Shown here: positions 16,640 to 63,805 of the stretch, piece by piece
Layout: every line of letters begins with the position of its first letter
How positions within the stretch are numbered: the stretch's first letter is position 1
Source of the DNA: Tubulanus polymorphus
Lineage: Eukaryota; Animalia; Nemertea
Length of the DNA stretch: 64,000 nucleotides
NCBI RefSeq assembly: GCF_964204645.1
Contig: NC_134033.1
Location: 7,262,655 to 7,326,654 of the forward strand
Direction: 5' to 3'
Program-made: the position numbers and the translations under genes
Notes under the pieces: generated by a model
Told to the model about the DNA's origin: nothing
The model's database searches: none
Seen by the model: only the letters and a program-made list of their open reading frames with translations

Positions 16640-18557
16640 CTAGACGTATCGGCCCCACTCCGCGGGATTTACGCGAAGCAGCAGAACACAAACACGGCCA
16701 TTCTCTCAATTTTCAATGATAGAAATCGTGTGTGTATTTCAATTATTTCGGCTGTTAGGGTTTAAGGGCACAATATAAGTTGATGATGTGATATGGCGAT
16801 GTTAATTAATGATAATTCCGCAGTGAAGCTAGTCACGAACGGTGCCGATTGAGTGTACAGCTGCCAAAAACACTGAAATGTGCGTAGTTGCGTAACTATT
16901 TGCAATGAATTGCAGACGAAACATGAAGCCTTAACGGCCGTTAAAAAAAAAATTATACCAATCGCAATTGTAAAATAACTAGGGGTCCAAGGACACCATG
17001 CCCACTTGGGAAGTGGTTCCAAATGCTCAACAATCTAACAATTTCAATATTCAACACCCCCTGGTGACCAAATACAGAATCCAATGACCTTGAAACTCAC
17101 CACAATCATAGAACATGTCAGCAGCTACGATTTTGTAATTGATTGTGATAACAAAATATGCCTCGTTACCACTTTAATATGGAAACACTAAGTTATTCTA
17201 CTATTCAACACCCCCTGGTGACCGTATTCAAAACCCAATGACCTTGAAACTCACCACAATCATAGAAAATGTCATGAACTATAACTTTGTAATTGATCAT
17301 GGTAACAAAATATGCCTAGGTACCAATATAATAAGGAAATACTAAGTTATTCTACTATTCAACGCCCCCTGGTGACCATATAGAATAACTAATGGCCTTA
17401 ACACTTGCCACAATCGTAGATGATGTCATGAGCTACAACTTTCCAATTGATTGTGGTTACAAAATAAGCATTGATACGAATATAATATAGAAATACTAAG
17501 ATATTGCATTATTCAACGCCCCCTGGTGGCCATATACAAAAACCAATGACCTTGAAACTCACCACAATCATAGAACACGTTATGAGCTACAACTTTCTAA
17601 ATGATTGTGGTAACAAAATACGCTTAGGTATCAATATAATGTGGAAAAACTTTTTCCCACTTACGAATGAGTACTGGTGACACCAAGATGGCCGCCAATT
17701 GCGTCATAATTGGCTGATGAAAAATACCTGTCTCAGGTATAAAACATCCCTTTCCAAAGAATAACCATCACAAATTGCAATGAGAAATGATAAACCAGTA
17801 GGAAGCTACAGGACTCAGAATTTGGGCCAAAATTAACATTTTTGGGCACTAAAAAGGTCATAGGACAGCCATCTTGAGTCCGATCGACCCAATTTTTGTT
17901 ATGCTGATGGGCCCTGGGGGAATTCACATATATCCGAAAGATCAAGGTAATTGATCAATGCGTCTTCAAAATTTCCCTCAAAAAGTTCAAAAATGTGTAA
18001 AAAGTGCTGATTTTGGCGAACAACAATGGCTGCCAGTCGGCCATCTTGAATCTGACAGGGCCAGTTTTTGGGCTGAAGATGTGTCTAGGGTAGATACATG
18101 TGTAACCCAAATATCAAGACATTACCTTGAAGCGTCTTCAAAACTTCCCAAAATAACTGGATTCCGTCTACGAACGGACGGCGGACGAAAAGTGAACGCA
18201 ATAGCCCGCTGGGACTAAAGTCCCAAGTGGGCTAAAAATGAGATAGAACCTAAGTTAAAATTCTGGCCATTTCTAAAATGTTATTGATTATTATTAATAA
18301 TTTTTAGTCAGTGCGGAACGTTTCGTTTTCCAACAATAATGAGGGGTGGTAGGTAGTCATGCAATTCAAGTCATCATTTATTACACGTTACTTCCGTGTT
18401 GTTGAAAATCTCGCGAGTCCTGGACCAAACCCCATTGAACAATGTGATCTGTGTGCTGGCCACAAATGCACACAGATCACACTACACTACCCATTACACA
18501 CTCCAGTACCCACAGCTTTCATATATCCATCCAAATATTTAGTGGCTTTCTTCCTGG
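16640..18557. repeat. ~660-bp repeat (interrupted by a HINE), inverted copy at 54839-55510
   Basis: 16640-16978 plus 18234-18557 match the reverse complement of 54839-55510 at high identity. The ORF-track peptides MQFKSS... appear on opposite strands. Confidence 0.9.
16977..18235 (-). mobile_element. Complete Helentron-associated non-autonomous element (HINE/DINE-like) with 154-bp tandem array
   Basis: Subterminal IRs are GCCCACTTGGGA (~17001) and TCCCAAGTGGGC (~18221). There is a terminal hairpin GCCCGCTGGGACTAAAGTCCCAAGTGGGC and a GGAC microsatellite near 18172-18188. Four or more 154-bp units occur at ~17051/17205/17359/17513. It is inserted in an A/T run without a TSD, and the empty site is visible at ~55160. 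Confidence 0.8.
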
Positions 18558-21500
18558 TTCCGAATTCTATGAAACTTTCAGATTGTAAAATAGATACTAT
18601 ACGCCACCTCTGATGAAAAAATCAGATCTCAGGACCATCTAGATAAAAAGTGTGTCACCAGTTTTACTGAAAATTTTCGCGATAGGCAAATGCATTGGAA
18701 GCATGACGTCATCAGCTAGTGATAGCAAAAGCGAACCATAGGTTCGCTAAAAAGTGAACGCGATTAGTCTGCACTATAAGCTAAGCCCCTAGTAGGCTAA
18801 AAATGGCCTACAAAGTTAGACCCTACTGTCTCACAATTTTTTCTCCTACAATTTTCCTCCAGGTGGCCCTTATCGTTTAATGACTTCTACTTCATACCAG
18901 TCTATAGATACTACCAACCCCACTCATGCTATAATAGGCCTAGGCTTATCAATCAATAATTAAATCAATTATTTATTACCTGGTGCCTTGTTTCTTTTGG
19001 TCACCATCAGAATTAACTTGCTCACTAACCGCCGCTGCGTTATCCCCAGAACTTGCCATTTTCCAGAGTATTTCGAATAATTATTTATCCACAAATATAT
19101 TTCGAAGTAAATCCCAACTCACAAATCACGGAATGAGTCTTTGTTTTATAGTTGTGCTGTAGACAATAGCTTTTCACTAGGCCTAGCCTAGAATACGACA
19201 CTGTTTCCTTCAGAGATTGACCGTATCTTGTCTGACCTTGGACAACTTAGCATTTATCAGTTTTTACCGGGAGGATTCTTATCTAGTTCTAATGATCCAC
19301 AGACTACAAACAAAATTTATTCAGCAAGTTCATCCAGCAGTCAGGACCAAAAAACTATCCATTACTACTCCAATCACAACTCGCCTCCGGCTTAGGCTAC
19401 GTGACAACAACCGTAATGTCAAATCAAATTTAATCAATGTAGGCCATATAGCCTTAATGTAATGTTAGTCAACCACAACAAATCTCAAACCAGGTTCAAA
19501 CTAGAATAGGGCCTGAATATCAGGCTTCTTCGATCTCTGAAAATAATCCTAAATTAAAGGTATAGAGAGATGATGCGTCCTCTAACACTCTCAGTACTAT
19601 AGTTAGTAGGTAAATTCGGCCTACGATCTCACTCCCGCGGGGCTGGGGCGAGTCGAAAAGAGGGTGAGAGCCGTTGTTGGTGATTTCGACAATGATGAGG
19701 AGACAGCTATAATTGTGACGTCGTGTTTCTTCAGGTTTCGGTCGGTTACTCCAGTTCCTTGAATTCACACGGTGGTGAATGGAATCACAGCCGTCCAGCA
19801 GGTCGCACTCCTCGCAGCAGCAAGCTTAACGCACCTCGTCTTGTCTTGCCTTCTTGCACCTTTGATCTGTATCAATTGATATTCTCCGTAGTAATCCACA
19901 AAAAACAATACATGGTTTACTATTAATACTAATCGATATCACTGTATGGCTGCTGTTGATGCTGCTGATGCAGTATAAACTCCTCCCTGAGCTCTACAGA
20001 GGTATGTCACGTGACCCATATACGAAATGACGTAATCAAGACGTCAGGAACCGGAAGAAATCCCCAAGTGAACATATTTGTTAGACTGGTTACCGGTCTC
20101 TATCTTCAATTAGAATTAGACTGGTCGCCTGTCCAATTCTGCGCGGTCGTCATTAGTTCCAAGACGAGTTTGTCGATGACGTCATATATAAATAATAACA
20201 TAACCATGTGCGTATACTCCGTGTACCAGATCGTGATCAGATGGTGGCCTAGCTAAGTCAGTTTTGGTGGTACATACATAATAAAAGTCTTATTAGGACC
20301 ACAAAGCACAGGCAGTTGAATAAAAACATCCTTTTTCAATCCATTCTTCCCTGTATTGCAAAAGACGGTGCGGGTGAGCTCTTGGAGTAATCAGTCGGAT
20401 TACTCCAAGGTGGTCTCAATCGAATTCTATGACTGTAATAAGGCTTCAAGAAGAAAAATAAAAAATGTTTTGTTTCGTCTTTTATGTTTTTTTCCTGAAA
20501 TCTCGATGTTGGTTCATAATACTAAAATAGGACAGGGTTTCGAATTGATATTTTTCTTAAGCAGATTTGGAGCTAAAGTTTCACGTATCATACTAAATTT
20601 AAGACGAATTGAAGAACTTTCGATCATTTTGGAGTTCAACTGTGTTGAACTGGTATGACTGTAATAACAAAACACGTCTTCATTCATCCTTCAATTTGAT
20701 GATTGGATCCCAGGAGAAAGGCTCCATATAATTAGATCACTAGCTTACTAGAGTTGTATTTGATTTTATCGTTATAAGTCGACCTTGCAAGAAAGTTATG
20801 TAAGTAAATAATTCATTTTGTTTATTTACATACCAGTGGATGTTCCTTTTTAAATAATGTTGAACAAAGAATCACCAAAAGATGATAACGGAAGAAGATT
20901 GCGGCAATTTGTTTATGATTATGCAATTCGGCGCACAGAATTGGTTAAATAAAGTCTTTGTATTTGAATTTGTTCCCCTCATCATGCACGCATGTGGTTA
21001 TGTTATTATTTACGTATGACGTCATCGACAAACTCGTCTTGGAGCTAAAGACGACCATTCTGCGCCACCTGCATTCGCAGAACCCGTCCGCCATCTTCCG
21101 CGGAATATACGGATCCAATCAGAATTCAGTATTTCATCACGTGAACAATGTAACATGGCCGCCTCCAGAGTGTCTCGATTTACGTTACGATTTACGTGGA
21201 CATCTTAATAGCAAAAGGTTGAAAGCCTGTTTTGGTCGATGGCTAGTGACGTCACTAGTACAAATTCCGAGCGGTTCGAATCCCACAATACGCCAAAATC
21301 ACTACGGCCGCTCTGAGCGCATATCTATAATAATAACTTTTATTTTCCCTCGAATTACAACACGATTATACATACAAAGTTATATAAAAGAATACAAGGG
21401 TACTGGAATACCAAGGGCCATACGACTTGCGAGTTACGTTTTACGAGTTACGATTTACGTTTTGCAAGTTACGATTTACGTTTTACGAGTTACTAATACA

Positions 21501-22346
21501 TTTCCTACAATACGTTACGACTTACGATTTACGACTTACGTTTTACGAATTACACGTTTTTCACTAATTGGCTTCGGGTATCCGAAGCGCGTAATTCAAA
21601 GAACGGGTTTCAAAATGAAGTCGAATTGTCATTTCAAACAGCATAATAAGAGTAATTTATTGTAAATAGTGAATCAATCTCGACTGCAGTGGTCTATTAC
21701 AGGGCAGAAAATCTGCGCGTTGGCCATCTGGTGCGAACCTTCTCAAAATCTATTAAATGCTGACAATACATTTCACACTGACTGATGACTGCCCCGTTAC
21801 GTGCACGATGATTTTAATAGACGATATTTCAATAGATCTTAGCTGGAAATGATTTTGATAATTAGAACAAGATTCATCAATTTAGAAAAAATGTATTTAT
21901 TTTTTGAAAACACTGGGCTGCATACAGCCATCCATCATCGTTACAGTTATTCGTCTAATAATTACACCCACACAGTGAAATGCCTGCCACGTGGCCACTG
22001 TCCTTGAACTCTTGCGAACCGAAACTCCAACACTTAACTCGTAAATCGTAACTCGTAATTCGTAAAACGTATTTACGTCAGTAATAGGGGTTTAGTTGTT
22101 TCATACCAAAGGTCGAGAGGTCGAGCTCGTAAAAAATGAAAAACATGAAAATAATAACAATTTCTACTTGAATTAGTCGCGAAACTCATAAAAAATGAAA
22201 AATAATTCTCACACGCCCGAATTTATTTTTCATTTTTACTCGCTAGAAAAAAGTGTGAGTAAAGTGTGAGTGAAATAATTCATAAATCATTGAATATTTA
22301 TATTTATATGCGTTGGATTCATTTTAATAAAAGTTTTGTTATTAAA

Positions 22347-22967
22347 ATGAAGACAGAAGAAGAACCCAACTTTAAAATCGAAATAAAAGAAACCAATAAA
22401 TCATTATCACAGTTTAACATTAAAAATTATATTTCAGCAACAAATTTAGTGTCCGCAAAGTATTATAAAATTGATAACATAACTATGATTAATCAAATAT
22501 TATCAAATGAAACATATTTAATGACTGAACTAGTAGATACTTTTGATAATGGAATAAAAAATCCTAAAATATTCAATACAGTTTTAAATTTTAAAGGAAC
22601 TTTAGATGAAAACATAATAAATATTCTTGAAACTCCTTTCAATGAAAGAAATGATGATATAATACTTTCAAAAGATTATAATGATTTGATTAACTTAAGA
22701 ATTGAAAAAAGACAATTATATTATTTCAATTTTGATAATAAACAAATTATCTATAATGAAAATTCATCAAATATTGGAATTCAATGTGAATTAGATAATG
22801 AAAATCATTATTGCAAGATATTGCAGTTCAATGTAATTTAGATGATGAATTAAGAAAATTCAATCCTAATGAAAAAAATTCATTGTTATTGCGGAGGTAA
22901 ATATTCAAAATCACATAAATCAAAGCATTATGAAACAATTAAACATAAAAACTGGCGTAAAGAGTAA
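22347..22967 (+). pseudogene. Unknown protein with C-terminal CxCG...H...H zinc finger (two frameshifts)
   Basis: ORF 22347-22841 (MKTEEEPNF...) continues in shifted frames as QDIAVQCNLDDELRK and IHCYCGGKYSKSHKSKHYETIKH (22869-22967). Confidence 0.6.
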
Positions 22968-23019
22968 CAATTCTACATTATAATTATTGAATTGAGTTAA
23001 ATGATTTAAATATCTAATA

Positions 23020-24890
23020 GACTGTTAAAATGATAAATTGTTTGACAGTTGAAATGATAAATTGTTTGACAGTTGAAATGATAAATTGTTTGGCAGTTGA
23101 AATGATAAGACAGCTGAAATGATAAATTGTTTGACAGTTGAAATGATAAATTGTTTGACAGTTGAAATGATAAATTGTTTGACAGTTGAAATGATAAATT
23201 GTTCGACTGTTGAAATGATAAGACAGTTGAAATGATAAATTGTTTGACAGTTGAAATGATAAATTGTTTGACAGTTGAAATGATAAATTGTTTGACGGTT
23301 GAAATGATAAATTGTTTGGCAGTTGAAATGATAAATTGTTTGACGGTTGAAATGATAAATTGTTTGACGGTTGAAATGATAAATTGTTTGACGGTTGAAA
23401 TGATAAATTGTTTGACGGTTGAAATGATAAATTGTTTGACGGTTGAAATGATAAATTGTTTGACGGTTGAAATGATAAATTGTTTGACAGTTGAAATGAT
23501 AAATTGTTTTGCAGTTGAAATGATAAGACAGCTGAAATGATAAATTGTTTGACAGTTGAAATGATAAATTGTTTGACAGTTGAAATGATAAATTGTTTGA
23601 CAGTTGAAATGATAAATTGTTTGACAGTTGAAATGATAAATTGTTCGACTGTTGAAATGATAAGACAGTTGAAATGATAAATTGTTTGACAGTTGAAATG
23701 ATAAATTGTTTGACAGTTGAAATGATAAATTGTTTGACAGTTGAAATGATAAATTGTTTGGCAGTTGAAATGATAAATTGTTCGACTGTTGAAATGATAA
23801 ATTGTTTGACAGTTGAAATGATAAATTGTTTGACAGTTGAAATGATAAATTGTTTGACAGTTGAAATTATAAATTGTTTTGCAGTTGAAATGATAAGACA
23901 GCTGAAATGATAAATTGTTTGACAGTTGAAATGATAAATTGTTTGACAGTTGAAATGATAAATTGTTTGACAGTTGAAATGAGAAATTGTTTTGCAGTTG
24001 AAATGATAAGACAGCTGAAATGATAAATTGTTTGACAGTTGAAATGATAAATTGTTCGACTGTTGAAATGATAAGACAGTTGAAATGATAAATTGTTTGA
24101 CAGTTGAAATGATAAATTGTTTGACAGTTGAAATGATAAATTGTTTGACAGTTGAAATGATAAATTGTTTTGCAGTTGAAATGATAAGACAGCTGAAATG
24201 ATAAATTGTTTGACAGTTGAAATGATAAATTGTTTGACAGTTGAAATGATAAATTGTTTGACAGTTGAAATGAGAAATTGTTTTGCAGTTGAAATGATAA
24301 GACAGCTGAAATGATAAATTGTTTGACAGTTGAAATGATAAATTGTTTGACAGTTGAAATGATAAATTGTTTGACAGTTGAAATGATAAATTGTTCGACT
24401 GTTGAAATGATAAATTGTTTGACAGTTGAAATGAGAAATTGTTTTGCAGTTGAAATGATAAGACAGCTGAAATGATAAATTGTTTGACAGTTGAAATGAT
24501 AAATTGTTTGACAGTTGAAATGATAAATTGTTTGACAGTTGAAATGATAAATTGTTTGACAGTTGAAATGATAAATTGTTTGACAGTTGAAATGATAAAT
24601 TGTTTGACAGTTGAAATGATAAATTGTTTGACAGTTGAAATGATAAATTGTTTGACAGTTGAAATGATAAATTGTTTGGCAGTTGAAATGATAAATTGTT
24701 CGACTGTTGAAATGATAAGACAGTTGAAATGATAAATTGTTCGACTGTTGAAATGATAAGACAGTTGAAATGATAAATTGTTTGACAGTTGAAATGATAA
24801 ATTGTTTGACAGTTGAAATGATAAATTGTTCGACTGTTGAAATGATAAATTGTTTGACAGTTGAAATGATAAATTGTTTGACAGTTGAAT
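23020..24890. repeat. Tandem array, 24-bp unit TTGAAATGATAAATTGTTTGACAG with interspersed 17-bp variant TTGAAATGATAAGACAG (~80 units)
   Basis: Read directly from the sequence. There are no unique spacers. Confidence 0.97.
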
Positions 24891-26005
24891 TGTTAACACT
24901 TGGACACTAAATTTGTTGCTGAAATATAATTTTTAATGTTAAACTGTGAAAATGATTTATTGATTTCTTTTATTTCGATTTTAAAGTTGGGTTCTTCTTC
25001 TGTCTTCATTTTAATAACAAAACTTTTATTAAAATGAATCCAACGCATATAAATATCCAATGATTTATGAATTATTTCACTCACACTTTACTCACCCTTT
25101 TTTCTAGCGAGTAAAAATGAAAAATAAATTCGGGCGTGTGAGAATTATTTTTCATTTTTTATGAGTTTCGCGACTAATTCAAGTAGAAATTGTTATTATT
25201 TTCATGTTTTTCATTTTTTACGAGCTCGACCTCTCGACCTTTGGTATGAAACAACTAAACCCCTATCACTTACGTCGTAATTCGTAACTCATAAAACGGA
25301 AGTCGTAACGAATATTCAATGAAATGTATAAGTAACTCGTAAAACGTAAATCGTAACTCGTAAAACGTAACTCGTAAAACGTAACTCGTATGGCCCTTGA
25401 GGTATTCCACACATATCGCATTTCAACGTTTCCGTTTAATAATTGTAAAATAACTAATAATAGCTTTATAAGGGTTAGAAGTACATTGTATTTACTCCTA
25501 GTGTATGTATATATCATGTACGGTTGCGAGAAAACTTAACCCCTGCCCTGGTTAAAATGAGTCCACTAAACCTTTAAGTTTTAAATTGTTTAATGACACT
25601 ATTAAGTTTTAAATTGTTAAAACTGCAAACTATGGTTGTCACAGATGCACCTTCTTCACATCCTTTGAAATCCTGGATACCATCGCTGGCGGCAAAGACC
25701 TTCAGGTCTGTCTTCAACGGCACATCGCTTTGGAACAAGTGACTACCGTGTCATCAAATCAGAACTAGGTAAAAAAATGTACCCCAAAAATAAATACAAG
25801 TTAACGGAATGTTTTGAGGTTTGAATTTTTTTGTTTATTTGTTGGTTCAAATCGAACCCTCGTCATCATCCTGATCTCCATAAATCTAGGAAAAATATTC
25901 GCACACTTAAAACAATAAAATACGAGCAATAAGCAATAACATCAGACTGGAGTAAGTAACTTTACTTAAATCACAGATACAATCCTACACAAAACAATGG
26001 CTATT

Positions 26006-26243
26006 CAGTGGCGGATCCACCCCTCTTTTTTACCGATGTAGCCACAAATCTGCGTTACTGAGTAAAACCGAATGAAATCATTCTATTAAGTAATGCTCCG
26101 AATGCACCTGATTGCATCTATTTTTCCAAAATTTGTTTAGGGAGGGTCTTCGCGTTATAGGTGCTTGCTCTGGAATGGCTTATAGCCATCCTGTTGTTGC
26201 TTTCATTTGCCCCCCCCCCTTCAAAATGCAGGATCCGCCCCTG
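26006..26243. mobile_element. hAT-like MITE
   Basis: TIRs are CAGTGGCGGATCC ... GGATCCGCCCCTG. An 8-bp TSD is not recognisable. Confidence 0.55.
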
Positions 26244-26386
26244 AGTGTAGGTAAAACGATCGACAAAGACGTACAGAACTCTTAAACAACAGTTAACAAT
26301 TTAAGCAACGATAGACACAACAGACAGCTGATTACTTTACAAACCAGTTGTCAGAACCTTAATTATTTTTACATGTACATACAGAG

Positions 26387-26521
26387 TGTTAGATCCTCGA
26401 GTTGTCCTAGAGCTCAAAGTACAATTACAACAAGGAAGCCATGTTGGAGATAAAATCTAACTTATATTGTTACCACCAGATGTCATCACTGTACAGATTA
26501 TACAATATCAAATACATAACA
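26387..26521 (-). repeat. 3' LTR (135 bp, TGTTA...TAACA) with adjacent polypurine tract
   Basis: TG...CA ends. The PPT AAAAAAGAAGA (minus strand) at 26522-26532 abuts the LTR. Confidence 0.9.
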
Positions 26522-26826
26522 TCTTCTTTTTTAACAAAAATTAAAGAAAAGTAATATCCTAAAATAACAATGATCAGTAACCATATGAAAATTACATGAA
26601 TCAACTTAAACACTAACGTACACTAAAATAGGTTGGGATACTCAAAAATAGTAAAACCAGCCTGTTAACTGAACTAGTTACAAGTACAAACTGTCTGATA
26701 TAGAAAATAAGCATAATAACACTTTACGACAATTACTTATCAGTAATAGGAAGATGTGGGTTTCATACCAGAGGACGAGAGGACGAGACACCACTCATCA
26801 CCACAAGTAATTTTTTTTCCTTATAA

Positions 26827-29800
26827 ATGGGAGAGAATGAACACCAACCAGAAAATAATAATGTTAATAAAAATCAATATTATTGCCAATATTGTAAAAA
26901 ATACGTCGATACATCTAATAAAACACGACATGAAAAAACTGCAAATCATATAAAAAATGTAATAGATTTTGAAACTCCAGAAAATTCCAATGAAAGAAAA
27001 GAAAGATTAGAAAATATGAATGTAGATGAAAATAAAATGTGAAGTTTGTAATGAATTTATAGTAAAAAGGAATTATAATAGACATCTCGAATCACAAAAA
27101 CACCATCAAAATTTGAGTAATAATGTTTTAGGAAAAGATTATTTTGATGATAAACCTCAAAAAGTAAAAGACCAACTTCAAAAACTAAATCCATTTCAAA
27201 TAAACCTTACATGGAAAATGTTAGAAATTATATTGATTCACTAGAAATAAAAGATACAATTGAAATATTAGAAACATTACGTAGTAAAATTGGTCCTGCA
27301 GCTATTATATTTAGATTTTTTAAAGGTACAACAATAGAAGATTATAGTAAATTTAATGAAATAATAGAAAAAATACTAGATTTGATAACAGATGTTGAAT
27401 ATCCAAAAATTAGTATCTCTGGGAAAGTAAGTTTTTTAAAGTCAGAAGATAAAATGGATTATAATATTCAAACACTCTCTGAAGAAATAATTTCAAAAAC
27501 ACAAATAAAAGAGAAGTTAGAAAAAATATTTAATGAATTTAAACGTCATATTGAAGAAAGATATTTTGAGGGTTCTGGCTTAACATTGAATGAAATTATA
27601 TTTTTAGATTTAAATGTTTATAATACAAAAAGAAAAGAAATAAAACATCAAAAAGTAATAAAATGTTTAAAAATGATTCAAACTTTACAACAGAAAAGGA
27701 GGATATAAAAGGATCATCTTATATTAAATTACCATTTACAACAAAAGCAGTAATAAATGTTCAAAATGAAGATAATAAATGTTTTCTGTGGGCAATTATT
27801 AGTTGCTTACATCCAACAGAAGATATTACATATAGTTTTAGAATAACAAATTACCGGAAATATGAAACATTATATAAAATTGATCAATATCCAGTAACTA
27901 TAAAAATGATTTCTAAAATAGAAAAAGTTAATAATTTAAAAATAAATGTATTCGAATTAATGCAATTACCAACGACAAAAGGTGAAAATATTAAAGATTA
28001 TACATTGGAAGCTTTTTATTTAACAGAATATTATGATGATGAAAATGCTATAGATTTGTTATATTACAAAAAAGATGAAAATGAACATTATATGTGGTTA
28101 AAACAAATTGATTTATTCTTTAGAACAGAAAGTGATCATCATCGTAAAATTTATCTATGTAGAAAATGTTTATCTAAATTTATGACTGAGAATACATTAT
28201 TAAAACATAAAGAATTATGTGATAATAAAGATTTTTGTAAATTAATAATGCCAACAGAAAAAGATTATAAATTTAAATTTACTAATCATAAATTTAAAAA
28301 TATTGTTCCATTTATAATTTATGGGGATTTTGAATCGTTGAATAAAGAATTAACTGATCAAGATAGAAAAGAAATATATAACAAAAAGCAATTATTAAAA
28401 TCAATGGATAAAGGAAATGAATTAAATGAAGACACAATACAAGACCCACCAACTATAAATACAATTGAAAAAGTTCATCAAAGAGCTGCTGCTTATGGAA
28501 TTTATATAAAATCAAATTATCCTGAATTATATGAAAGTCAATATATTTCGTTTAGAGGTGAAAAAGTAGTTAATGATTTTTGTGACAAAATGATTGAATT
28601 AGAAAGTGATTTTGCAAAATTATTAAACAAAAATAAAAGAATAGTAATGACAAAAGAAGATGAAATTGAAAAATTTAAAAGAATTATTGTGAAAAACGTT
28701 TTTATTCATTTGATAAAAAAGTTAGAGATCATGATCATTTAAATTCAAAATATCGTGGAGCTGCTCATGAAGATTGCAATTTACAAGCTAAGAAAGTTAA
28801 TTTCGTACCAATATTATTTCATAATTTATCAGGCTATGATACCCATCTATTTATAAAACAATTATCGGGAAAATTGGGCGCAATTAATCAAGAAATAGAA
28901 GAATATAATGCTATGAATGGTGTAAATGTAAGAAAATATGATTTTAAATTATTAGCTAAAACATCTGAAAATTATATTTCATTTCAATTTGGTTGCATTA
29001 GATTTTTAGATTCTTATAGATTTCTAGCAAGTTCATTAGATTATTTATCAAAAAGTTTAGTTGATAATGATTTTGTTATAACTCGATATTATTATCCAAA
29101 TGAACAAGATTTTAAATTATTGAGATATAAAGGCGCAATTCCTTGTTCATTTTATAAAACACACAATGATTTTAATGTAACAGAATTATTAAAAGATCAA
29201 TTTTATGATCAATTAAAAGACGAGTATGTGAAAGACGAAGTGTTTAATAGAACATTAAATATTTGGAACCATTTTAAGATGAAAAATCATGGCGAATTAG
29301 TTGATTTATATTTAAAATCAGATGTTATGATATTGGCTGACATATTTGAAAAATTTAGAGAAGTTAATTTGAATCATTTTAATGTTGATCCTTGTTATTG
29401 CTACTCTAGTCCTGGTTTAACCTGGCAATAATGTGGTTTAAAATATACTAATGTAGTGTTAGATTTATTAAAAGAACCAGACATGGTTTTATTATTTGAA
29501 AAATCAATTAGAGGTGGAATTAGTGGTGTTATGGGAGATATTTTAAAGCAAATGATGAATATAAATTATTATATATTGATGCCAATAATTTATATGGTTG
29601 GGCAATGATGCAACCTCAACCATATAAAAATTTTATATTAACAGAAGTTGAAAATGATGATAAAACTGATCGGGAAAGCGCAATTATGAGTTTAAAAGAT
29701 GAAGCACCAATTTGTTATTTCTTTGTAGTTGATTTAGAATATCCTGAAAATATAAAGTTTAAAACAAGAAACTTACCTTATTGCCCAGAACATTTAACTG

Positions 29801-31893
29801 TAGATGATATTTATTTAAGTGATTACCAGAAGAAAATAAAACCGAAAGATCATGTTTTTACAGAAAAATTAATACTTACTCAAAATAATAAATACAATTA
29901 TATTGTTCATTATAGAATGTTAAAATTTTATCTAAAACAAGATATGAAATTAAAGAAAGTACATAGATATATTGAATTTAATCAATCGAAGTGGTTAGAG
30001 AAATATATAGATTTCAATACTCAACAGAGAACAATATCAAAAACAGATTTTGAAAAAGATTTCTTCAAATTAATGAATAATAGTTTTTATGGTAAAACAT
30101 GCAAAAATATTAGAAATAGAAATGATATTGAATTAGTAAATAATTCTGAAAGATTAACACATTTACAATCAAGTCCTAGACATTTAGGAAATAAAAGATT
30201 TGAAGATTATTTAACAGCAGTTAAATTAAAAAGAACGTCAATGAAATTTAATAAACCTATATTCATTGGTTCAACTATTTTAGAAGTATCAAAATTATTA
30301 ATGTATGATTTCTATTATAATGTTTTACAACCACTTTTTGGGGAAAAGCATATTGAAATATTATATTTTGATTCTGTAACAGCTGACACCCCAATATTAT
30401 TAAAATGTAATGATAAAATATTGATAAGAAGAATTTCAGAAATAATTCCAAAACAAAATGAATGTTATATTTCATATGGTGAAAAAGAATTAATACAAAT
30501 AAATGGATTAATGGATGTTTGGACAAGAAATAGATGGAAAAAATTAAAGAATATTATTAGACATAAAACAAATAAGAAAATCTATAGAGTTAGAACTAAA
30601 TTAGGGTTTGTAGATGTTACAGAAGATCATAGTTTAATTAAACGAAATGGCGATGAAATAAAACCAACTGATATAAAAATTGGAGATGAATTATTACATA
30701 AAAGATTTTTCCAAAGAATGAATCATATGTCATTTGATGAAATAATTGATAATATTTATAATATAGAACCCGAAACATTAGAAGAAAAAGAATATTTTAT
30801 CAAAGGATTTTTTATGGGTGATGGTTCAGCAGGTGTGTATAATTATGTTTGGGGTAATAAATATTGTTGGTATTTATGCAATCAAGACTTAAAATTATTA
30901 GAAAGAATTAAGAAATTCTGTGAAGAAGTTTATTCACATAAAACATTCAGAATCATGGATGTTATGAAATCATCAGCAGTTTATAGAATACTTGTAAATA
31001 ATCCTAAAGATTTTGCTATAAAATATAATGATGAATTCTATATTCATGCAATAGCGGAAAGTAATACTTCAACAAAAGAAAAGATAGTTCCAGATTATGT
31101 ATTAAATGCAAAAAATAATTTAAGAAAATGGTTCTTCATTGGGTTCTATGCTGCAGATGGTTCAAAAAGTTTCAAAAAATGCAAAACGATATCTTTAGCT
31201 CAAAAAGGAAAAGTTGCTATATCAGGATTGAATATATTATGCAATTCATTAGGTTTTAATATGAATATTGGATTGATTAAATCTAAACCAAATTGCTTTA
31301 ATTTAAGCCATGTAGAAAATGAGTTAACAGAATAAGTTAAAGATTTATTTGAAATATATAACCCAACAGATTATGTTTATGATTTATCAACTGAAGATGG
31401 TACATTTAACTGTGGATTTCCATTAATAGCGGTCAATACTGATGCGTACATACTAAAAATCAAGACAAATGACATAACAAAAGACTTAAAAACATTAAAA
31501 CATCATTTTGATTTTAGCAATTATCCTAAAGATCATGAACTATTTAGCAATGATAATAAAAAGATTCCTGGTAAATTTAAAGGTGAATTAGGGGGTGATG
31601 AAATGATTGAATTTGTTGGGATAAGAAGTAAAATGTATAGTTACAGAACAAAAGATCATGAAGCTAAAAAGTTAAAAGGAATAACAAAACACGCGGTTGA
31701 TAAACATATAGAATTTCAAGATTATATAAAGTATTTATATAACTCAATTGTAATGAAACATAAAATGAATTGTTTAAGATCAGAAAATCACGAGATGTAC
31801 ATTAATGAAGTTGAAAAAACTAGTTTGAATCCATTTGATGATAAAAGGCATATTTTAGATGATGGTATAAAAACATTACCTTATGGCCATTAA
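26827..31893 (+). pseudogene. polB: Protein-primed family B DNA polymerase (group-2 type) with N-terminal Zn fingers/terminal-protein region, OTU-like protease motif, EndoVII/HNH insert and intein
   Basis: Motifs across the frameshifts include GSG, NEDNKCFLWA...HY, ExoI YGDFES, VRDHDH..YRGAAH..CN, ExoII FHNLSGYD and ExoIII YLKSDV. They continue with IRGG, motif A YIDANNLYG, motif B KLMNNSFYGK, motif C YFD/TD, KMYS and KLKG. There are about 5 frameshifts and 2 in-frame stops. Confidence 0.95.
30373..31437 (+). mobile_element. Intein with LAGLIDADG homing endonuclease (355 codons, one in-frame TAA at 31333)
   Basis: Block A is SVTADTP after YFD and block B is VTEDH. The LAGLIDADG motifs are KGFFMGDGS and IGFYAADGS. 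Block F is YVYDLSTEDGTF and block G is IAVN followed by extein TDAY. Confidence 0.95.
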
Positions 31894-33726
31894 AACAGAA
31901 AATCAATATCATCATACTCTATCATCATACTCTATATACTATTGGCTTCATTATTTTCATTTAATTGTTCTTGTATAATTTGTTTAGGTTCTTCCATTTC
32001 AATTTTTCCTTGTTAATTCGTCAGATGGAATTATAATATCGATGTTTAAATAATTTACAATCTTATTTAAAAAGAATTCCTAACTAATTGAATCTGTTAT
32101 TCTATTTTCCAAATGATACATTAATAGTTGTTTGAATGTTTTTTATATTTTCCATATCTTCTTCTGTTAATTTAGGTTTTTCATAATAATCGTTAAATAA
32201 TAAATATAAATACATTTTCTTTTGTTTTGTGTTAAATGTTGATGGAATAAATGTTTTTATAATATCTTTTTTAGTTATTTCACCATTTTTATTTTCTATC
32301 ATTTTCATTTTTTCAAGCCATTGCATATATTCTGGTGTATGATCTTCTATAGAAAATATTTTAAAAATTTCATCTAGATAATTTAATTATGGTTCTATGA
32401 GAAAATCTCTAGTTTTTTCTTCACCCCATAAATTCTTTTGCCATCCACATTCATTACAAAATAACACAGTACCTTCTTGTCTTAAGGTCGCATAACTACA
32501 TTGTGGGCATTTTTGTTTATAATTTATTGGTAATAGGTCTTCATTAAGCTCCTGGTATTTTCTTACGTTTTCTTTATGTTTTATTGTTCTATTATGTAGA
32601 TTTGAATTACTTGTTGTAATAATCAATTTACAATATTTACAATAATATGTTTTTCTTGTTAATTCATTATATCGTTTTTCTAATTTTTCAACTGTTTCTT
32701 TATTATCTGGTAACGTTTTCTCATATTTTATTTTTTCTAAACTATTTTTTCTTTCATTGAATTCTGCTTCAAATGTATTAGAAATTTTATCTATATGTAT
32801 TTTACGAAATTGATGATTCTCCCAATCTTCTATATTTTCAGGGCTATATTTTATTCGACAAGGCTCACAGAAATGATCTTTTATATTATCCTTATCATAG
32901 AATAAGAAAGGTCTTTTCCAAATAATTTCAGGTTCAACTTCAACAGAATTACTATTACTTTCATAACTATCAACATTAGCTGTTGCGCCATTAATTTTAC
33001 ACTTCTCTGAATGTTTTTTAACATAATTTCTTGAGAATAATTTATTACATTTTGGGCAATTTATTTTAGGGGGTTTATAATTTTCATCATGTTTTTTCAT
33101 ATGTGTATTCTTTTAATTCTACCATTTTTTATAACATAAAAAAATTACCGCTCATCACTAAAAATTAATTTTAATAAAATTTTTCCTTAATAAATGGATG
33201 AGAAGATACCATGCGAAATTTGTGGTGAACTTCTAAGAAAAAGTAATATGGCTCGACATATGAAAAAACATGATGAAAATTATAAACCCCCTAAAATAAA
33301 TTGCCCAAAATGTAATAAATTATTCTCAAGAAATTATGTTAAAAAACATTCAGAGAAGTGTAAAATTAATGGCGCAACAGCTAATGTTGATAGTTATGAA
33401 AGTAATAGTAATTCTGTTGAAGGCTCACAGAAATGATCTTTTATATTATCCTTATCATAGAATAAGAAAGGTCTTTTCCAAATAATTTCAGGTTCAACTT
33501 CAACAGAATTACTATTACTTTCATAACTATCAACATTAGCTGTTGCGCCATTAATTTTACACTTCTCTGAATGTTTTTTAACATAATTTCTTGAGAATAA
33601 TTTATTACATTTTGGGCAATTTATTTTAGGGGGTTTATAATTTTCATCATGTTTTTTCATATGTCTAGCCATATTACTTTTTCTTAGAAGTTCACCACAA
33701 ATTTCGCATGGTATCTTCTCATCCAT
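31891..33726 (-). pseudogene. Multi-zinc-finger protein (C2H2/U1-like fingers plus a C-terminal Zn ribbon), disrupted by stops and an inverted triplication
   Basis: Motifs are CEIC..H..H, CPKC, CEPC, CKYC and CPQC..CNEC. ORFs 33726-33394, 33100-32387 and 32326-32102 are pieces of one gene; the last two are in frame across a TAA. Confidence 0.7.
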
Positions 33727-33794
33727 TTATTAAGGAAAAATCTTATTTAAATTAATTTTTAGTGATGAGCGGTAATTTTTTTATGTTATAAATA

Positions 33795-34552
33795 ATGGTA
33801 GAATTAAAAGAATACAGAATATTTGTTGATTCTAGAAAACTTACAAATTATAAATCACATAATTTAATAGTTCAATTAGATAGAGAATTTAAGAATTGTG
33901 TTGATTTAAAATTAGTAAATATAAGTTTATGTAACTCATTTTACAATATATCGGATAAAAGTCTAGAACATTTAATTTTTTCAATCTTTTACAAAAAAGG
34001 AATAAATGGTTTTTTATATATTTAAAACCAGGATTATATAATTTAGATACATTAGCACAAGAAATTAATAGAAAAGCTCGAGCTAAATTAGGCAGTGATT
34101 CCGGATTTAGTATTAGAATTCTAAAAAGTGATAGTTCTAATAAAATAAAGATTAGGTTAGCTAATGACGAACAATTTAAATTTACAGTAAGAAAACCTTT
34201 AGGTAAACTGTCAGGAATTAACCCAGATATTGTTACAGCATACGCAGAAGGTAGATCAAACTTAATACCTTTTACACACTTGTATATTTATTGCAATTTA
34301 ATTGATCCTACAAAAACATTCGAAGCAACTAAAGATACAATTTGTAATTCTAGTATATTAAATATTTTACCATTAAAGAATGTTAAACAATTTGGAACGC
34401 AAATAAATTATACTTTAACTGAATGTGATTTTAAACCTTGTATTCCTCAATTTAATAATTTTAAATTAGAAATAAGAAATCATAATGGTTATTTAATTGA
34501 TTTGAATAACTTTCCTGTGATATATGAATTAGTTATAAGATGTAGAGAGTAA
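33795..34552 (+). pseudogene. Minor capsid (penton-like, single jelly-roll) protein, one frameshift ~34020
   Basis: The pattern IFVDSR...NSFYNI...PGLY...LYIYCNLI...IL..LP...LEIRNHNGYLIDL is typical of Polinton/virophage minor capsid proteins. Length is ~250 aa. Confidence 0.75.
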
Positions 34553-40273: not shown

Positions 40274-41393
40274 ATGGGTGGTAAAAAAACTCCTAATACT
40301 AAAGAACAATATTTAAGAAATTTATATTACAACCCTGAGAGTTCGGTTGCTTATTCTTCTACCAAAAATATACGGCGTCAAGTAAAACAAGATAAATTAG
40401 ATAAGATAATCCCACAAAATTTAGTTAAATATAAAGATATAAATGAATTTATGTTAGAACAACCAAGATACACAACACATAAAAAAATTGTTAGAAAATA
40501 TAAAACACGTAAAACTATGGTAAGTTATGTAGATCAACGGTGGCAAGGAGATTTAATTGATATGAAAAATGTTAAGAAAGATAATGATGATTATTGGTGG
40601 TTATTGAATATAATTGATATTTTTAGTCGTTATGTATGGAGTTTCCCACTTTATAGAAAAGATGCTGTACAAACATCAAATGTTTTAAGAAAATTTCTTT
40701 CGGATGATAAACTAAAACCAGAAAAAATACAATTTGATGATGGAAAAGAATTTGATAATTCACTTGTTCATGAACTCTTAGACAATCATAATATTAAATA
40801 TTTTTCAACAAAATCGGATAAAAAAGCAGCAGTTGTTGAACGATTTAATAGAACATTAAGAACAAGAATGTGGAAATATTTTACAGCAAATAATACTTTT
40901 AAATGGATTGATGTTTTACCAAAATTGATAGAAGGATATAATAATTCTTATCATTCTTCTATTGGAATGAAACCTATTGATGCTAGAAAACCTAAAAATT
41001 CTGAAATTGTTTGGAATAATTTATATGGAGCATTTCTTGTAGATGATTTTGGTGAACCTAAATTTAAAGTTGGTCAAAATGTTAGAATTTTGTTAGATAT
41101 GTTAGATATTTGACAAGGGATACGATCGAAATTTTACTAGGGAAATATATAAAAATAAAAAAGGTAATAAAAACAAAACCATATGTCTAGATTTAGATGG
41201 TGAAGAAGTTGATGGCTACTTCTACGAAGAAGAATTAAGTTTAACTACTGAAAATCTAGAACAAGAATATAAAATTGAAAAAGTATTAAAAACAAAAACT
41301 ATTAAAAGAAAAAAATATTCTTTAGTAAAATGGGTTGGATGGCCAGATAAATTCAATGAATGGATATTATCAAGTAAAATTAAAAATATATAA
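40274..41393 (+). pseudogene. int: Retroviral-like (rve) DDE integrase with C-terminal chromodomain
   Basis: The DDE triad is WQGDLID, QFDDGKEF and VVERFNRTL. After frameshifts the sequence reads FDKGYDRNFTREIY and YKIEKVLK...LVKWVGWPDKFNEWI (chromo-like). Confidence 0.93.
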
Positions 41394-42002
41394 ATGAATA
41401 AGGAATTATCTATATTTGAGCCTCATAATATGTTAATTTCTGGTGTAACAAATTGTGGAAAAACTTATTTTATATTAAATTTATTAGAAACTGTTTATAA
41501 AAAATATTTTGATAAGATAGTATTATTTTGTCCAACATATGAATTTAATCAAACTTATGATAGAAATATTACTAGAAATAATAAATTTATTATATTAGAT
41601 CCTAAAACAGTAAAAGAAAATTTAGATAATTGCATTAAAATAGCAATTGATATTTATAAAGGATCAAATACATTATTCATTATAGATGATTGTGCTAATC
41701 TACATGATTCAAAAGTTAGAGAGAGTGAGTTATGCTATTTAGCTTTTTCTGGCAGACATTTTGGGATAACAACTTGGCTTTTAAATCAAAAATATAATTC
41801 AATTGTTAAAGACTTTAGAGAAAACATTCGATTTCTAGTTTTATTCTACAATAAAGATAGAAAATCGATGAAAAATGCACTTGAGGAAAATGATATTATT
41901 CCACATGATTTACATAATGAATATATGGATAAATTGAAAAATATCAAAAGATCAAAATTACTATTTAGATTACAACACCCATTTAAATATGAATTTATTT
42001 AA
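41394..42002 (+). CDS. A32-like/FtsK-HerA DNA packaging ATPase, 202 aa
   Basis: Walker A is GVTNCGKT and Walker B is LFIIDD. The Arg-finger motif GRH and the conserved Q are present. The ORF is intact. Confidence 0.92.
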   Translation: MNKELSIFEPHNMLISGVTNCGKTYFILNLLETVYKKYFDKIVLFCPTYEFNQTYDRNITRNNKFIILDPKTVKENLDNCIKIAIDIYKGSNTLFIIDDCANLHDSKVRESELCYLAFSGRHFGITTWLLNQKYNSIVKDFRENIRFLVLFYNKDRKSMKNALEENDIIPHDLHNEYMDKLKNIKRSKLLFRLQHPFKYEFI

Positions 42003-42177: not shown

Positions 42178-42661
42178 CAACATCACAAATAATTTTTTTG
42201 TTATATAAATGGTAGGTGAAAAGAAAATAAAATCTAAAAATGGTGATGTTCCAATTGAAAAAACTTTAGATGATTTAGGAATAACAGAAAACAAATTAAT
42301 TCCAGATGATGGTGCTTTAAATAATGTTACAACAAATAATAGTTATGAATATTATCTTTATTGTTAACATCAATTAGAAATATTAATAGCATCTGGAAAA
42401 TGTAAAAATTTTATCGGTAAAAATTTAACTTATAATGAAATTGGTGAATGAATGAATGAATATATTTTTCTCAAATGTATAATACATAATATAATAGTAT
42501 AATAATTGTTGTACATGATTATTGAATATATACATTCAAGCAGGACAGCCCCAAGCCCTAAGGGCTGTACCTAATTGGGGGGATGCCCTGGTATGATTTG
42601 ATACCATGATACAATTAATGAGAATACAATAATAATTAATGACAACATAATTGACATCAAA

Positions 42662-42900
<239 letters not shown>

Positions 42901-42965: not shown

Positions 42966-45900
42966 TTAATAGTTCAAGAGTGTAGTTTTTTTTAATCGTG
43001 AGATAAAAGAATTTATGGTAGCAGCTTTGCGAAGATGATCATCAGTGTTCTGCCAAAGAATTGGAGTTCTACTTAAAAAAGAATCGTGAAAGAGTTTCGT
43101 GGTATGAAATTGGACTCTGGCATTATTCCTGTTTCTAGTGTTATAATTGTGGAATTTTGAATTTAAATCTAGTAAATTGTAGATAGACAAAGGGAGCTTT
43201 TTATGAGAATGATTAAATCCAAATTTAAGAATTTCTAATTTGACAAGATCGGCAAATTTTAAAATTTTGTATTTTTTGAAAATAGGGGATGTTGGTGCAT
43301 TGAAGGCAGCATTATCTATGAGTCGTACAGTTTTTTTCTGGATTTTGAAAATACTATTAGTTTGCTCAGAGGAAAGCAGTGGACCCCAGACAACCAGTGC
43401 ATAAATAAGATGACAGTGAATATATGAATTGTAAATAGTTTTTTTCAAAAAACCTGGGAACATATTCTTAACAGTCCTTAGCAGGTACACATTTTTATTC
43501 ATTTTATTGATAAGCTGTTTAATATGCAAATTCCAATTGAGATCAGCATCAATATTTAATCCTAGAAATTTACAGTCAGTAGATAATTCTATATTTAAAT
43601 TTTCTAATTCTATTTTTAAGTTGTCTGATCTCAATAGATGCCTTTTTGGTTTGAATAGAAAGTATTTAGTTTTTTCAATGTTCAGGGTAAGTTGATTGGC
43701 ATGGAACCAGGAGGTTAATAATTTTAAATCATTTTTAGCATTTTGAAACAGTTCAGAAATATTCTTTTCAGTACATAGAAGGTTTGTATCATCGGCAAAT
43801 TAGATGGCTTTAGAATGTTTGAGATTATTATTTAGATCGTTAATGTAAACAAGAAAGAGAAGCGGACCTAAGACTGAGCCTTGTGGTACTCCATGCGTAA
43901 GCATGTTGAAAGTCGAGTCAGCATTATTGTAGTGAACATAAATTTTTCTATCTTTGAGATAACTATGAAACCAGTTGAATACGTGTCCCCTAATTCCATA
44001 GTGATATAATTTATAGAGTAGTTTGTCAATATTTAACGAGTCAAATGCCTTAGATAGGTCAAGACATATACCCAAAGAAAAATTTCTTTTTTCTAAATTA
44101 GCGATAATGTTACCAATAAAATCAGCTATGGCATGAGTTGTAGAATGATTTGGTCTGAAGCCATATTGCGTAGTATTTAGAATTTCAAATTTAAACAAGA
44201 AATGATATAGTCGCTTATGAACAAGTTTTTCCAAGATCTTGGATAAGACTGGTAGTAGGGAAATTGGACGGTAATTGTTTAGAGTCTGTTTGCTTCCAGT
44301 TTTATGAAGAGGAATAACCTTTGCTATTTTCATTTTATCTGGGAATTTGCCTTCTTGAAGAGATTTATTACAAAGAATAGTCATAGGATTAATAATTGAG
44401 GGAGCAATAAATTTCAATAGTTTATTGCTTAAAATATCTGGACCCGTACTTTGTTTAGGCGAAAGCTGGTTGATCATTTTAAATATTTCCTCACTATTTG
44501 TAGGTTGCAGGAACATAACATTGTCATTTTTATTGGGAAGAAATGCCATAAAATTAGTAGTAGTGTTAGGTATTTTTTCTGAATACTTTCTGCCAACCGA
44601 AGAAAAGAAATCATTAAATGCAAGACTAATTTCGGAATTATCAGTAACCGTTTTTCCATCAATCTTAAAATTTGTCGTAATTGATGTTTTATCATTAGTC
44701 TTGCCAATTAGTTCTTTAATGAATTGCCACATTTTACGACAGTTTTTTCCAGAGGAATTAATTTTGTAATTATAAAAATCTATTTTTTGACGTCTTTTAA
44801 CATAGCTGAGCCGATTATGATAATTTATATAGTTTTTATAACGTTGGTCTGATTTATCTAACCCAATAACTTTTTTGTATAGATTATCACATTTCTTTGA
44901 GGATCTCAGAATAGAGTTAGTCATCCACGGCTCAATTAATTTGTTTTTCTTTTTTTAATTTCTGGAGCTATACTATTAATAGTATTAGTAATATTTGTCA
45001 TAATAAAGTCATACGATTCACTACAATTCATATTATCCAAATTTGACCAGTTAACATTTAAAAGGGTGTTATTTATTGATTGTATATTTTTAGCATTAAG
45101 GTTACGGGAGAAGAATTCATTTGTTGTTGGTCTAACATTATATACAATAGAAACGAAACAAGGCAAGTGATCCGAAATATCAGTTAGTAGTATTGCACTA
45201 GTGTGATTACTATTTAGTTCGGGAGAGAGGTATATGTTATCAATTAGAGTAGCAGTGGACTTTGTGATTCTTGTAGGTCGCAGTATTGTAGGGCATAGAC
45301 TATTGTTTAGGTTGATTTCTAAGAATTTTGATGTATTTTTATGACTATTGATCTTAATGTAGTCTAAATTCTGATCCATACCAAGAACTATCTCTGATTT
45401 TTCGTTATTAATTTTTGTAATTAAAGTTCTGTATTTTTCAAGAAACATTAGATCGCTATTGCCAGGTACTCTATATAATTCACCAATAATAATTTTCTTT
45501 TTAGATTGAGTTTTAGGATAAATTTCTATGAAACAAAATTCAAATTTACCTTCTTCAAAAATGTCCAAATCAGTTCTCGGGTTGTACGATATATTATCAT
45601 TAACGTAGATGGCGACTCCTCCTTGAGATAAATTCAGTCTATGATTTTCAATTAAATGATAGTTAGATAATTTACAAAGAGGTGCATTTTTATCTGTTAG
45701 AAAGGTTTCACATATCATTATGACATCTATAATAATACTTTGATTTTTAAAGATTTCTATCATAATTTTGAGTTTATCAATTTTTGAATAGAGACTACGT
45801 ACATTCAGTTGTAAGATATTAAGGTTGTTGGTAGTATTGAAATTATATACATCTTTCAGGTCACTGGGTTTAGTATATGGACATTGATTACTATCTAAAA

Positions 45901-45994
45901 TCAGATCATCATCAATGATTGAATTTAAATAATAATTTTTATCATTAGCTTTTTGTTTGAATAATTTAAAAAAATCTGTGTTGCCAAGACACAT
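42966..45994 (-). pseudogene. LINE ORF2: AP endonuclease + reverse transcriptase
   Basis: APE motifs are QLNVRSL, ICETF, GGVAIY, TLIDNIY and SDH. RT motifs are YRPISLL, DLSKAFD, GVPQGSVLGP and FADD. There is one frameshift (~44930) and one TAA (43800). Confidence 0.95.
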
Positions 45995-47678: not shown

Positions 47679-48309
47679 TCAGCTGTCACTCAGTCACAAC
47701 ACAAATAGATATATGTTTAATCCTTTATAGACCAACGACGAAAATAAGTGAGTGAGTAGAGTAGTCCATGACACCTGTCACTGTTGATATTTTTCGCATT
47801 GATATTCACAAAATATTCACAAATTCACTCAAACGGCACATATCCGATCAGAAAAATTTCAAGACATCTCTAGATCCGACCGAGATAATTTAGCTTTTCG
47901 CAATGATACAAAAATCTCTAAATTATTTCCGACACATACCCCCGAAAAAGGCAGTTTTCAGGAGCTAAGTGCGCACACGACTGACCAGGTCGGCCATATT
48001 TTGTTGATACAATGAAATCAGATGAAATTATTAGATTATTTAAGATTCATGAAACCGCGAGAACAGCTAGAATTAATGACGCGATATCAGAAAATGTAGT
48101 AAAAGGTTACAGTAAATTATGTAATTATATGCTGCTAATTCAAGATGAAAATAGATTATATGCTGATTTAAAAAATGATTATTTAGTTATGACCGAATTA
48201 AATAAATGGATTGGATATTTATCATTTCAATTAGGTGGATTTATGACATTATTATCAACTGGAGTTATAACATTTTCAAATATTGAAAGTAAAAATATTT
48301 CTATAATAA

Positions 48310-63802: not shown

Positions 63803-63805
63803 TAA

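Follow-up and report, generated by a model that had tools for sequence, protein, structure and literature searches.

What is a 3.2-kb element that has the ends of a Polinton (also called Maverick) and no gene for replication, integration or capsid: a member of a short family moved by other elements, the remains of a larger copy, or something of a different kind? The question is raised by positions 22080-25270 of a 64-kb stretch of the genome of the nemertean Tubulanus polymorphus (contig NC_134033.1, positions 7,262,655 to 7,326,654 of the forward strand; 64,000 nucleotides, referred to here as the window and numbered from its first letter). A preliminary description, made from the letters of this DNA, had termed the element a non-autonomous mini-Polinton, and we retain the latter name. 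From the analysis presented here, the mini-Polinton is probably a 3.2-kb non-autonomous member of a Polinton/Maverick family and was likely inserted in trans by an integrase that an autonomous Polinton supplied. Integration by the retrovirus-like (rve) integrase of a helper is suggested by the tip that the element shares with a full-size Polinton and by its 6-bp target site duplication (TSD), while replication by a helper polymerase is suggested by its end motif.

Anatomy of the mini-Polinton

The element is composed as follows.

22080-25270, mini-Polinton, 3191 nt (3.2 kb), between two copies of TACGTC
22074-22079, left TSD copy, TACGTC; the same hexamer lies directly outside both ends
25271-25276, right TSD copy, TACGTC, directly outside the right end
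22080-22454, plus strand, left terminal inverted repeat (TIR), 375 nt
24902-25270, minus strand, right TIR, 369 nt, with the tip AGTGATAGG
22318-22351, plus strand, 34-nt palindrome TTCATTTTAATAA..TTATTAAAATGAA, with the likely start codon, ATG at 22347, inside it
22308-22841, plus strand, the one open frame of substantial length (177 codons), probably starting at 22347
22854-22967, plus strand, same-frame tail with the pattern C-x-C...H-x5-H (pattern piece 22854-22964), behind two in-frame stops
23020-24896, plus strand, tandem array of a 24-nt unit, 81.7 copies, 86% matches, ~1.9 kb

The mini-Polinton starts with AGTAATAGGGG and ends with CCCCTATCACT, and the tip of its left TIR reads AGTAATAGG. 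Within this TIR, a doubled octamer, AGGTCGAGAGGTCGAG, occupies 22110-22125, and the motif AAAAATGAAAAA is present three times, twice in direct orientation (at 22132 and 22191) and once inverted (at 22226). A repeat search returned the inverted arms in two pairs, 22075-22303 with 25047-25275 (229 nt, 98%) and 22300-22454 with 24902-25056 (155 nt, 99%), which a global alignment joined into one continuous inverted repeat with five mismatches and a single 6-nt gap (~98.7% alike). TIRs of ~370 bp, a perfect 6-bp TSD and a 1.9-kb tandem array had all been claimed before; each was borne out, the TSD and the limits of the element to the letter, with a probability of 1/4096 for one such 6-bp match by chance.

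On the left, the TIR takes in the palindrome ahead of the start codon, which formed a hairpin in the centroid fold, as well as 49 codons from the start of the frame. In the right TIR, there is an inward-facing, shortened copy of the frame start of 51 codons (24893-25048, minus strand). The GC content of the mini-Polinton (0.259 overall, 0.218 in the frame and 0.270 in the array) is near that of a Polinton next to it (0.235) and below that of the host flanks (0.35-0.38); its inside is thus Polinton-like in composition and not captured host DNA. Scans of 21000-27000 against Rfam (E up to 0.1) and for tRNAs gave no matches. We also considered an assignment to the miniature inverted-repeat transposable elements (MITEs), which are noncoding and well under 1 kb; with 3191 nt and a 177-codon frame, the mini-Polinton lies outside that class.

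Missing Polinton genes and an orphan frame

Among the frames of at least 40 codons in 22080-25270, searched with Pfam, there was no gene for replication, integration, capsid, packaging ATPase or protease, which agrees with what the preliminary description had said of the first three. A protein-primed family B polymerase (pPolB) and a retrovirus-like integrase are described as defining for all Polintons (PMC5499653). Lacking both, the mini-Polinton can only be a non-autonomous derivative.

What it does contain is a single orphan frame. Its stop-free run of 192 codons was not reached in any of 5000 shuffles of 22080-23019, so that the frame is no chance product of A+T-rich DNA; the remaining frames of at least 40 codons are either read-outs of the array or the shortened start copy in the right TIR. 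No Pfam family scored above its cut-off on the 177-codon frame (best, DUF4283, 17.3 bits; cut-off 27.2), and its 177-residue product had no homologue among proteins of 97-310 residues. Besides, phmmer returned no match for the product among 1.84 billion representatives, an Atlas search gave a best score of 0.82, under the level of a lead, and a single-sequence AlphaFold model was uninformative (mean pLDDT 31.9).

The preliminary description had credited the element with one unknown Zn-finger gene. The unknown gene stands, in the form of the orphan frame, whereas the Zn finger is not supported by Pfam: the cysteine-histidine pattern lies behind the two stops, and its piece (22854-22964) matched neither zf-U1 nor any other zinc-finger family (best, PCYCGC, 15.7 bits; cut-off 25). 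For zf-U1 (PF06220; cut-off 22 bits), the tail gave 0 matches, while the first genes of the two other Polinton-like elements in the window scored 30.2 bits (in the neighbouring Polinton) and 19.4 bits (at 63476).

Ends shared with other elements of the window

The window holds two further elements against which the ends of the mini-Polinton can be compared.

26742-50005, plus strand, full-size Polinton, 23 kb, comparator and candidate helper type, with CTTATC TSDs at 26736-26741 and 50006-50011
28679-31890, pPolB pieces of this Polinton, DNA_pol_B_2 with 34.1 bits (cut-off 25.8)
40274-41113, its rve integrase, 42 bits (cut-off 32.6)
41394-42002, its A32-like ATPase, Pox_A32 with 52.3 bits (cut-off 22.8)
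63130-64000, plus strand, end of a third Polinton-like element; the window stops 870 nt into it

The neighbouring Polinton begins with AGTAATAGGAAG and ends with CTTCCTATTACT, with CTTATC on each side. In the 64 kb, 0.77 occurrences of a 9-nt tip, AGTRATAGG, would be expected; there are six, a number attained in none of 100 shuffles, and all six sites are element ends: two of the mini-Polinton, two of the neighbouring Polinton, and those at 63130 and 63395. Further inside, 19-46 nt from the ends, a subterminal block, GTTTCATACCARAGG, is found four times (0.20 expected) and is followed by the doubled octamer; for AGGWCGARMGGWCGAG, from this subterminal region, four occurrences were likewise counted, against 0.00 expected. 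Between the mini-Polinton and the neighbouring Polinton, 26 of the 28 positions of the block are identical. The earlier statement that the ends are shared with the Polinton 1.5 kb away thus holds for the 9-nt tip and the 28-nt block and does not extend beyond them, there being no further end sequence in common. The inverted repeat of the neighbouring Polinton measures ~95 nt and reaches the start of its first gene.

A closer relative is the end at 63130, which the first 156 nt of the mini-Polinton resemble at 88.5%. In a sensitive blastn search of the mini-Polinton against the window, 42 of the 46 matches were internal and the other four all fell into 63131-63344; tblastn with the frame found nothing in the window outside the mini-Polinton with an E value below 0.4. 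As neither search led to the neighbouring Polinton, these results support the earlier claim that the mini-Polinton is not a deletion derivative of that copy. A motif like the palindrome at 22318-22351 also precedes the first gene of the 63130 element (local alignment; a score reached by 3 of 500 shuffles).

The ends also bear on whether we are dealing with a Polinton derivative at all. A foldback or other cut-and-paste element with 6-bp TSDs might look alike, given that foldback-like elements, Tetris among them (PMC4079207), typically combine long inverted ends with a satellite in their interior, and an assembly artefact around a satellite might do so too, tandem arrays being prone to mis-assembly. 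We hold both to be extremely improbable. The tip and the subterminal block are also present in a gene-complete Polinton at a distance of 1.5 kb and occur in the window only at element ends, the array lies in the unpaired middle and outside the inverted ends, and the TIR, the frame and the border between frame and array are covered by reads or contigs of three sequencing runs. Nor does the mini-Polinton fit the Foldback class of the Tetris type, since its array (23020-24896) stands between the ends and on one side only.

The 63130 end has a layout of its own. Positions 63130-63395 form a 266-nt near-perfect foldback (tip, 133 nt, the same 133 nt inverted, tip), whose DNA fold has -92.5 kcal/mol (z = -23). 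This foldback has no TSD of its own, its flanking hexamers being CACATG and CTTAAA, and the next sequence after it consists of A+T-rich genes. Foldback joints of this family are frequent in the sequencing reads. It comes closer to the description of a MITE than the mini-Polinton does.

The tandem array

The array makes up 59% of the mini-Polinton, adjoins the right TIR and is strongly skewed towards G over C. Short units of 17 nt are interspersed among the 24-nt units and give it a higher-order period of 113 nt. All 69 matches to the unit with at most three mismatches lay within 23020-24879, with none elsewhere in the 64-kb window. The array likely grew by local slippage from the sequence behind the gene. 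Its unit was not significantly like the TIR of the mini-Polinton (73 of 300 shuffles reached the score), and when compared with five regions, it scored above all shuffles (0 of 300) only for the final 1 kb of the neighbouring Polinton, where 25 of 32 letters, rich in A+T, aligned without a gap. We also entertained a kinship of the array with other Polintons; as the best two matches (0 and 9 of 300 shuffles) are short A+T-rich strings, we took them to reflect composition.

The element family in sequencing reads

Sequencing data under the same species label comprised two contig sets (X1 and X2) and one raw Illumina run (X3). Reads were aligned to 20600-23100 at 90% likeness, and X3 depth is the sum of the two mate columns. 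The summed X3 depth was distributed as follows.

20600-20767: 5.7-11.8
flanking repeat: 152-185
22112-22195, tip region: 1549
22280-22363: 169
22364-22447: 253
22448-22783, unique frame: 295-323
22784-22951: 170-196

Exactly at 22080, 231 X3 reads break off, and their loose parts agree only at 0.37; the flanks are hence unrelated, and the tip type of the mini-Polinton is present at many genomic places. At 22099, a further 765 X3 reads depart into a sister tip, AGTAATAGGGATAATAGGC; it belongs to the 63130 type, from which the read consensus differs by a single letter. The frame region was covered ~25-50 times as deeply as the lowest flank and is thus present in roughly tens of copies at a likeness of at least 90%. 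Out of 9472 aligned X3 reads, 462 were at least 99% alike, 3505 fell between 95 and 99% and 5505 between 90 and 95%, a spread that marks the mini-Polinton family as diverged and not brand new. One X1 contig skips 22364-22889 and thereby represents a still shorter form, and foldback joints at 22176/22181, between opposite strands, were present in X1, X2 and X3.

Relative to the flank, the summed depth of the family was ~20000-30000 to 590 in X1 and ~300 to 170 in X3, a ratio ~20 times higher in X1; the summing of contig depths, a difference between individuals and extra copies are all possible causes.

The reads also set the window copy apart from its relatives. Small indels at 22800-22875 distinguish it from most X3 reads, so that the break of its frame near the 3' end looks private to this copy. 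Its letter was likewise rare among X3 reads at 22406 (7/245), 22459 (5/277) and 22523 (7/307).

Several points weigh against a mobile family of short elements. A depth at 90% likeness is a rough count of copies, and the bins that serve as its baseline lie at the edge of the aligned stretch. If all copies had the layout of the mini-Polinton, the inner TIR should be covered twice as deeply as the unique frame, yet its depth (169-253) stayed below that of the frame (295-323); many copies of the frame probably do not have such extended ends and could form part of larger, perhaps full-length, elements. Part of this shortfall may be accounted for by a variable stretch at 22249-22300, where 234 and 188 reads have loose ends and indels occur at 22282 and 22294. 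In the reads over 20600-23100, no second complete copy with frame, array and long ends was seen, and exact searches of viral and metagenome contigs with TIR strings of 28 and 25 nt and with one or two array units gave 0 matches. No autonomous element with the tip region of the mini type (GGGGTTTAGTTG after AGTAATA) is present in the window, and the mini-Polinton may derive, through deletion or rearrangement, from an autonomous family that has yet to be seen. The X1-X3 data demonstrated no empty site for the insertion. As to the gene, seven of the frame variants are listed, with 179 others besides; five of these seven are at third codon positions and only two are synonymous, so that no selection on the frame is demonstrated.

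Some of these points would suit an in-situ wreck: a full-length Polinton of the 63130 kind that inserted at TACGTC and lost its inside, with the copies in the reads being its full-length relatives. The depth of the inner TIR allows that most frame copies differ in layout from the mini-Polinton, a second complete copy was found neither in the reads nor in the viral and metagenome contigs, and the frame of the window copy is broken. We nevertheless regard such a history as unlikely. A plain deletion retains the right end of the parent and the length of its TIRs, whereas here the right end is the inverted left end through 49 codons; moreover, no other Polinton sequence remains in the mini-Polinton, its two ends are still ~98.7% alike, and the X1 form that skips 22364-22889 hints at a series of short forms.

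Insertion site

The mini-Polinton was inserted into a 7-nt periodic array (TACGNNN), which is the right arm of an older repeat of ~0.9 kb. The left arm of this repeat lies at 21404-21548 and corresponds, in inverse orientation, to 25275-25409 (80.5% over 149 nt). As the period of the flank is 7 nt, periodicity alone cannot produce the 6-nt duplication. With the mini-Polinton and one hexamer taken out, the site and the other arm of the host repeat became collinear over the junction, which is weak evidence in periodic sequence.

In its present state, the older repeat extends over 21326-25411, with 7-nt arrays in inverted arms and CATATC on each side, and encloses the mini-Polinton. One contig each in X1 and X2 joins 21325 directly to 25418 and is without the whole nest. 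The match of an X1 contig ends at 22075, and its 75 further letters do not fit the mini-Polinton, as might be the case at an empty site.

Origin of the right end and mode of propagation

How might a short element come to have the same sequence at both ends? Since the TIR takes in the promoter-like palindrome together with 49 codons of the frame, and no Polinton right-end sequence is left, copying of the left end explains the layout better than the simple loss of an internal part. It was likely such copying, through strand switching or snap-back during protein-primed replication, that produced the right end. That we infer the strand switch from layout is a further point on the debit side of our interpretation. 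The tip and the doubled octamer 30 nt inside it may be recognised by the integrase and probably also by the protein-primed polymerase, in which case a helper would copy and paste the mini-Polinton.

The foldback joints in the three runs and the foldback at 63130 would fit a snap-back mode of error. Taken further, the mini-Polinton, the 63130 foldback and the joints in the reads might all be footprints of snap-back, and the mini-Polinton a helper-dependent satellite genome that has a gene of its own, is copied outside the chromosome and becomes re-integrated; this seems distinctly unlikely to us.

Still less probable, in our view, is a satellite or defective-interfering genome of a polintovirus, which would be replicated by the polymerase of the helper and packaged into its capsid, with gene and array acting as stuffer, decoy or packaging aid. 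Snap-back would give both the left-end sequence at either end and the foldback joints in the three runs; the ratio of family to flank depth, higher in X1 than in X3, and the intact length of the orphan frame would also be in keeping with such a genome. Yet a summed contig depth is no copy number, and the array unit is not significantly like the TIR. Besides, Maverick genomes are reported to hold to a size of ~17 kb (PMC8097293), of which 3.2 kb falls far short. We therefore return to a non-autonomous Polinton derivative, likely inserted by an autonomous Polinton, as the favoured explanation; on this account, the mini-Polinton is likely an ordinary kind of parasite of a parasite, albeit one seldom described for Polintons.

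The neighbouring Polinton and its surroundings

The full-size Polinton next to the mini-Polinton is itself interrupted by a long interspersed nuclear element (LINE) at about 43000-48000, whose RVT_1 and endonuclease domains lie at 43800-45994 on the minus strand. Its polymerase gene is spread over at least three frames (28679-29428, 29524-31332 and 31336-31890), the middle of which contains an intein-like insert (Intein_splicing with 27.7 bits, below the cut-off of 35.8; LAGLIDADG_3 with 25.8 bits, above the cut-off of 22.5). Reading TGA and TAG as sense made the frames of this Polinton barely longer, and reading TAA as sense opened frames equally on both strands; the standard code was therefore kept.

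Small proteins of the zf-U1 type are encoded at 26827-27042 (30.2 bits), 32387-33100 on the minus strand (30 bits) and 63476-63727 (19.4 bits), that is, at the left ends of the neighbouring Polinton and the 63130 element and once more inside the former. Overlapping the internal zf-U1 gene, 32860-33816 contains one direct duplication (248 nt, 100%) and two inverted ones (319 nt, 99%; 167 nt, 100%), which point either to rearrangement of this part in recent times or to faulty assembly. An (AAT)n run occupies 42600-42830.

Beyond this Polinton, a Gypsy-type retroelement with reverse transcriptase, RNase H and integrase is located at 50724-53894. Inverted copies of one repeat at 16651-18557 and 54839-55480 (pieces of 70-248 nt, 96-100% alike), 36-39 kb apart, bracket the entire Polinton cluster.

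Comparison with known systems

A 6-bp TSD is given as a feature of Polintons/Mavericks in PMC8097293 and PMC3014272, and the former reports perfect 6-bp TSDs and TIRs of 402 +/- 276 bp for intact vertebrate Mavericks. The same source describes vertebrate end motifs of the form 5'-(AGT)2//(ACT)2-3' or 5'-(AG)3//(CT)3-3' and ties them to jumping-back in protein-primed replication. The ends of the mini-Polinton, AGTAAT... and ...ATCACT (AGTGAT on the other strand), are each one letter off (AGT)2, a near match to a motif published for vertebrates. Autonomous Polintons/Mavericks and the mini-Polinton are alike in the 6-bp TSD and in TIRs of a few hundred nucleotides and come close to each other in their AGT-type ends; the 9-nt tip and the low GC are those of the full-size Polinton in the window. 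On the other hand, the autonomous elements are 15-20 kb long and are described as equipped with pPolB, integrase, ATPase, protease and capsid (PMC5499653, PMC4028283), whereas the mini-Polinton has 3.2 kb and none of these genes and is 59% satellite.

The usual view of Polintons is of large virus-like elements that are self-sufficient; short riders have been named in Repbase and are hardly described openly. Examples are Polinton-1N1_DR from zebrafish, as named in PMC9341505, and Polinton-N1A_NV from Nematostella, as named in PMC11296320, both of which are, like the mini-Polinton, not self-sufficient; this comparison is by description only. According to the account in PMC11296320, Polinton-N1A_NV retains a capsid gene, which the mini-Polinton does not have. 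An Anolis survey noted that non-autonomous Polinton copies were apparently absent from that genome (PMC3014272). Within full-text literature, the phrase "non-autonomous polintons" was met only with regard to Tlr1, and "Polintons" together with "defective interfering" was not found.

A further parallel is offered by Tetris and DAIBAM of Drosophila virilis, portrayed in PMC4079207 as likewise non-autonomous and as having tips common to elements that were likely moved by one autonomous partner. Their internal tandem repeats can seed satellites, and the mini-Polinton also has an internal array. The 220-bp repeats of Tetris, however, lie inside the inverted ends, whereas the array of the mini-Polinton is single-sided and stands in the unpaired middle; the mini-Polinton further differs from Tetris in its Polinton-type tips and TSD and in the one gene-length frame that it has retained (PMC4079207 for Tetris).

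As a short form with both tips, a single orphan gene and ends that seem to have been copied from one side, the mini-Polinton provides a compact substrate with which to define the end-sequence needs of integrase and polymerase, and it offers a test of whether Polintons replicate as free linear DNA. Were the satellite reading true, polintoviruses would have defective-interfering parasites of their own; otherwise, the mini-Polinton adds another to the non-autonomous transposon families that contain a satellite. The layout of its ends has a counterpart in defective adenovirus genomes, in which a protein-primed linear replicon carries left-end sequence at both ends, the inverted end copy arising by strand switching. 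Those genomes are free DNA in particles, whereas the mini-Polinton is known here as an integrated element, flanked by its TSD.

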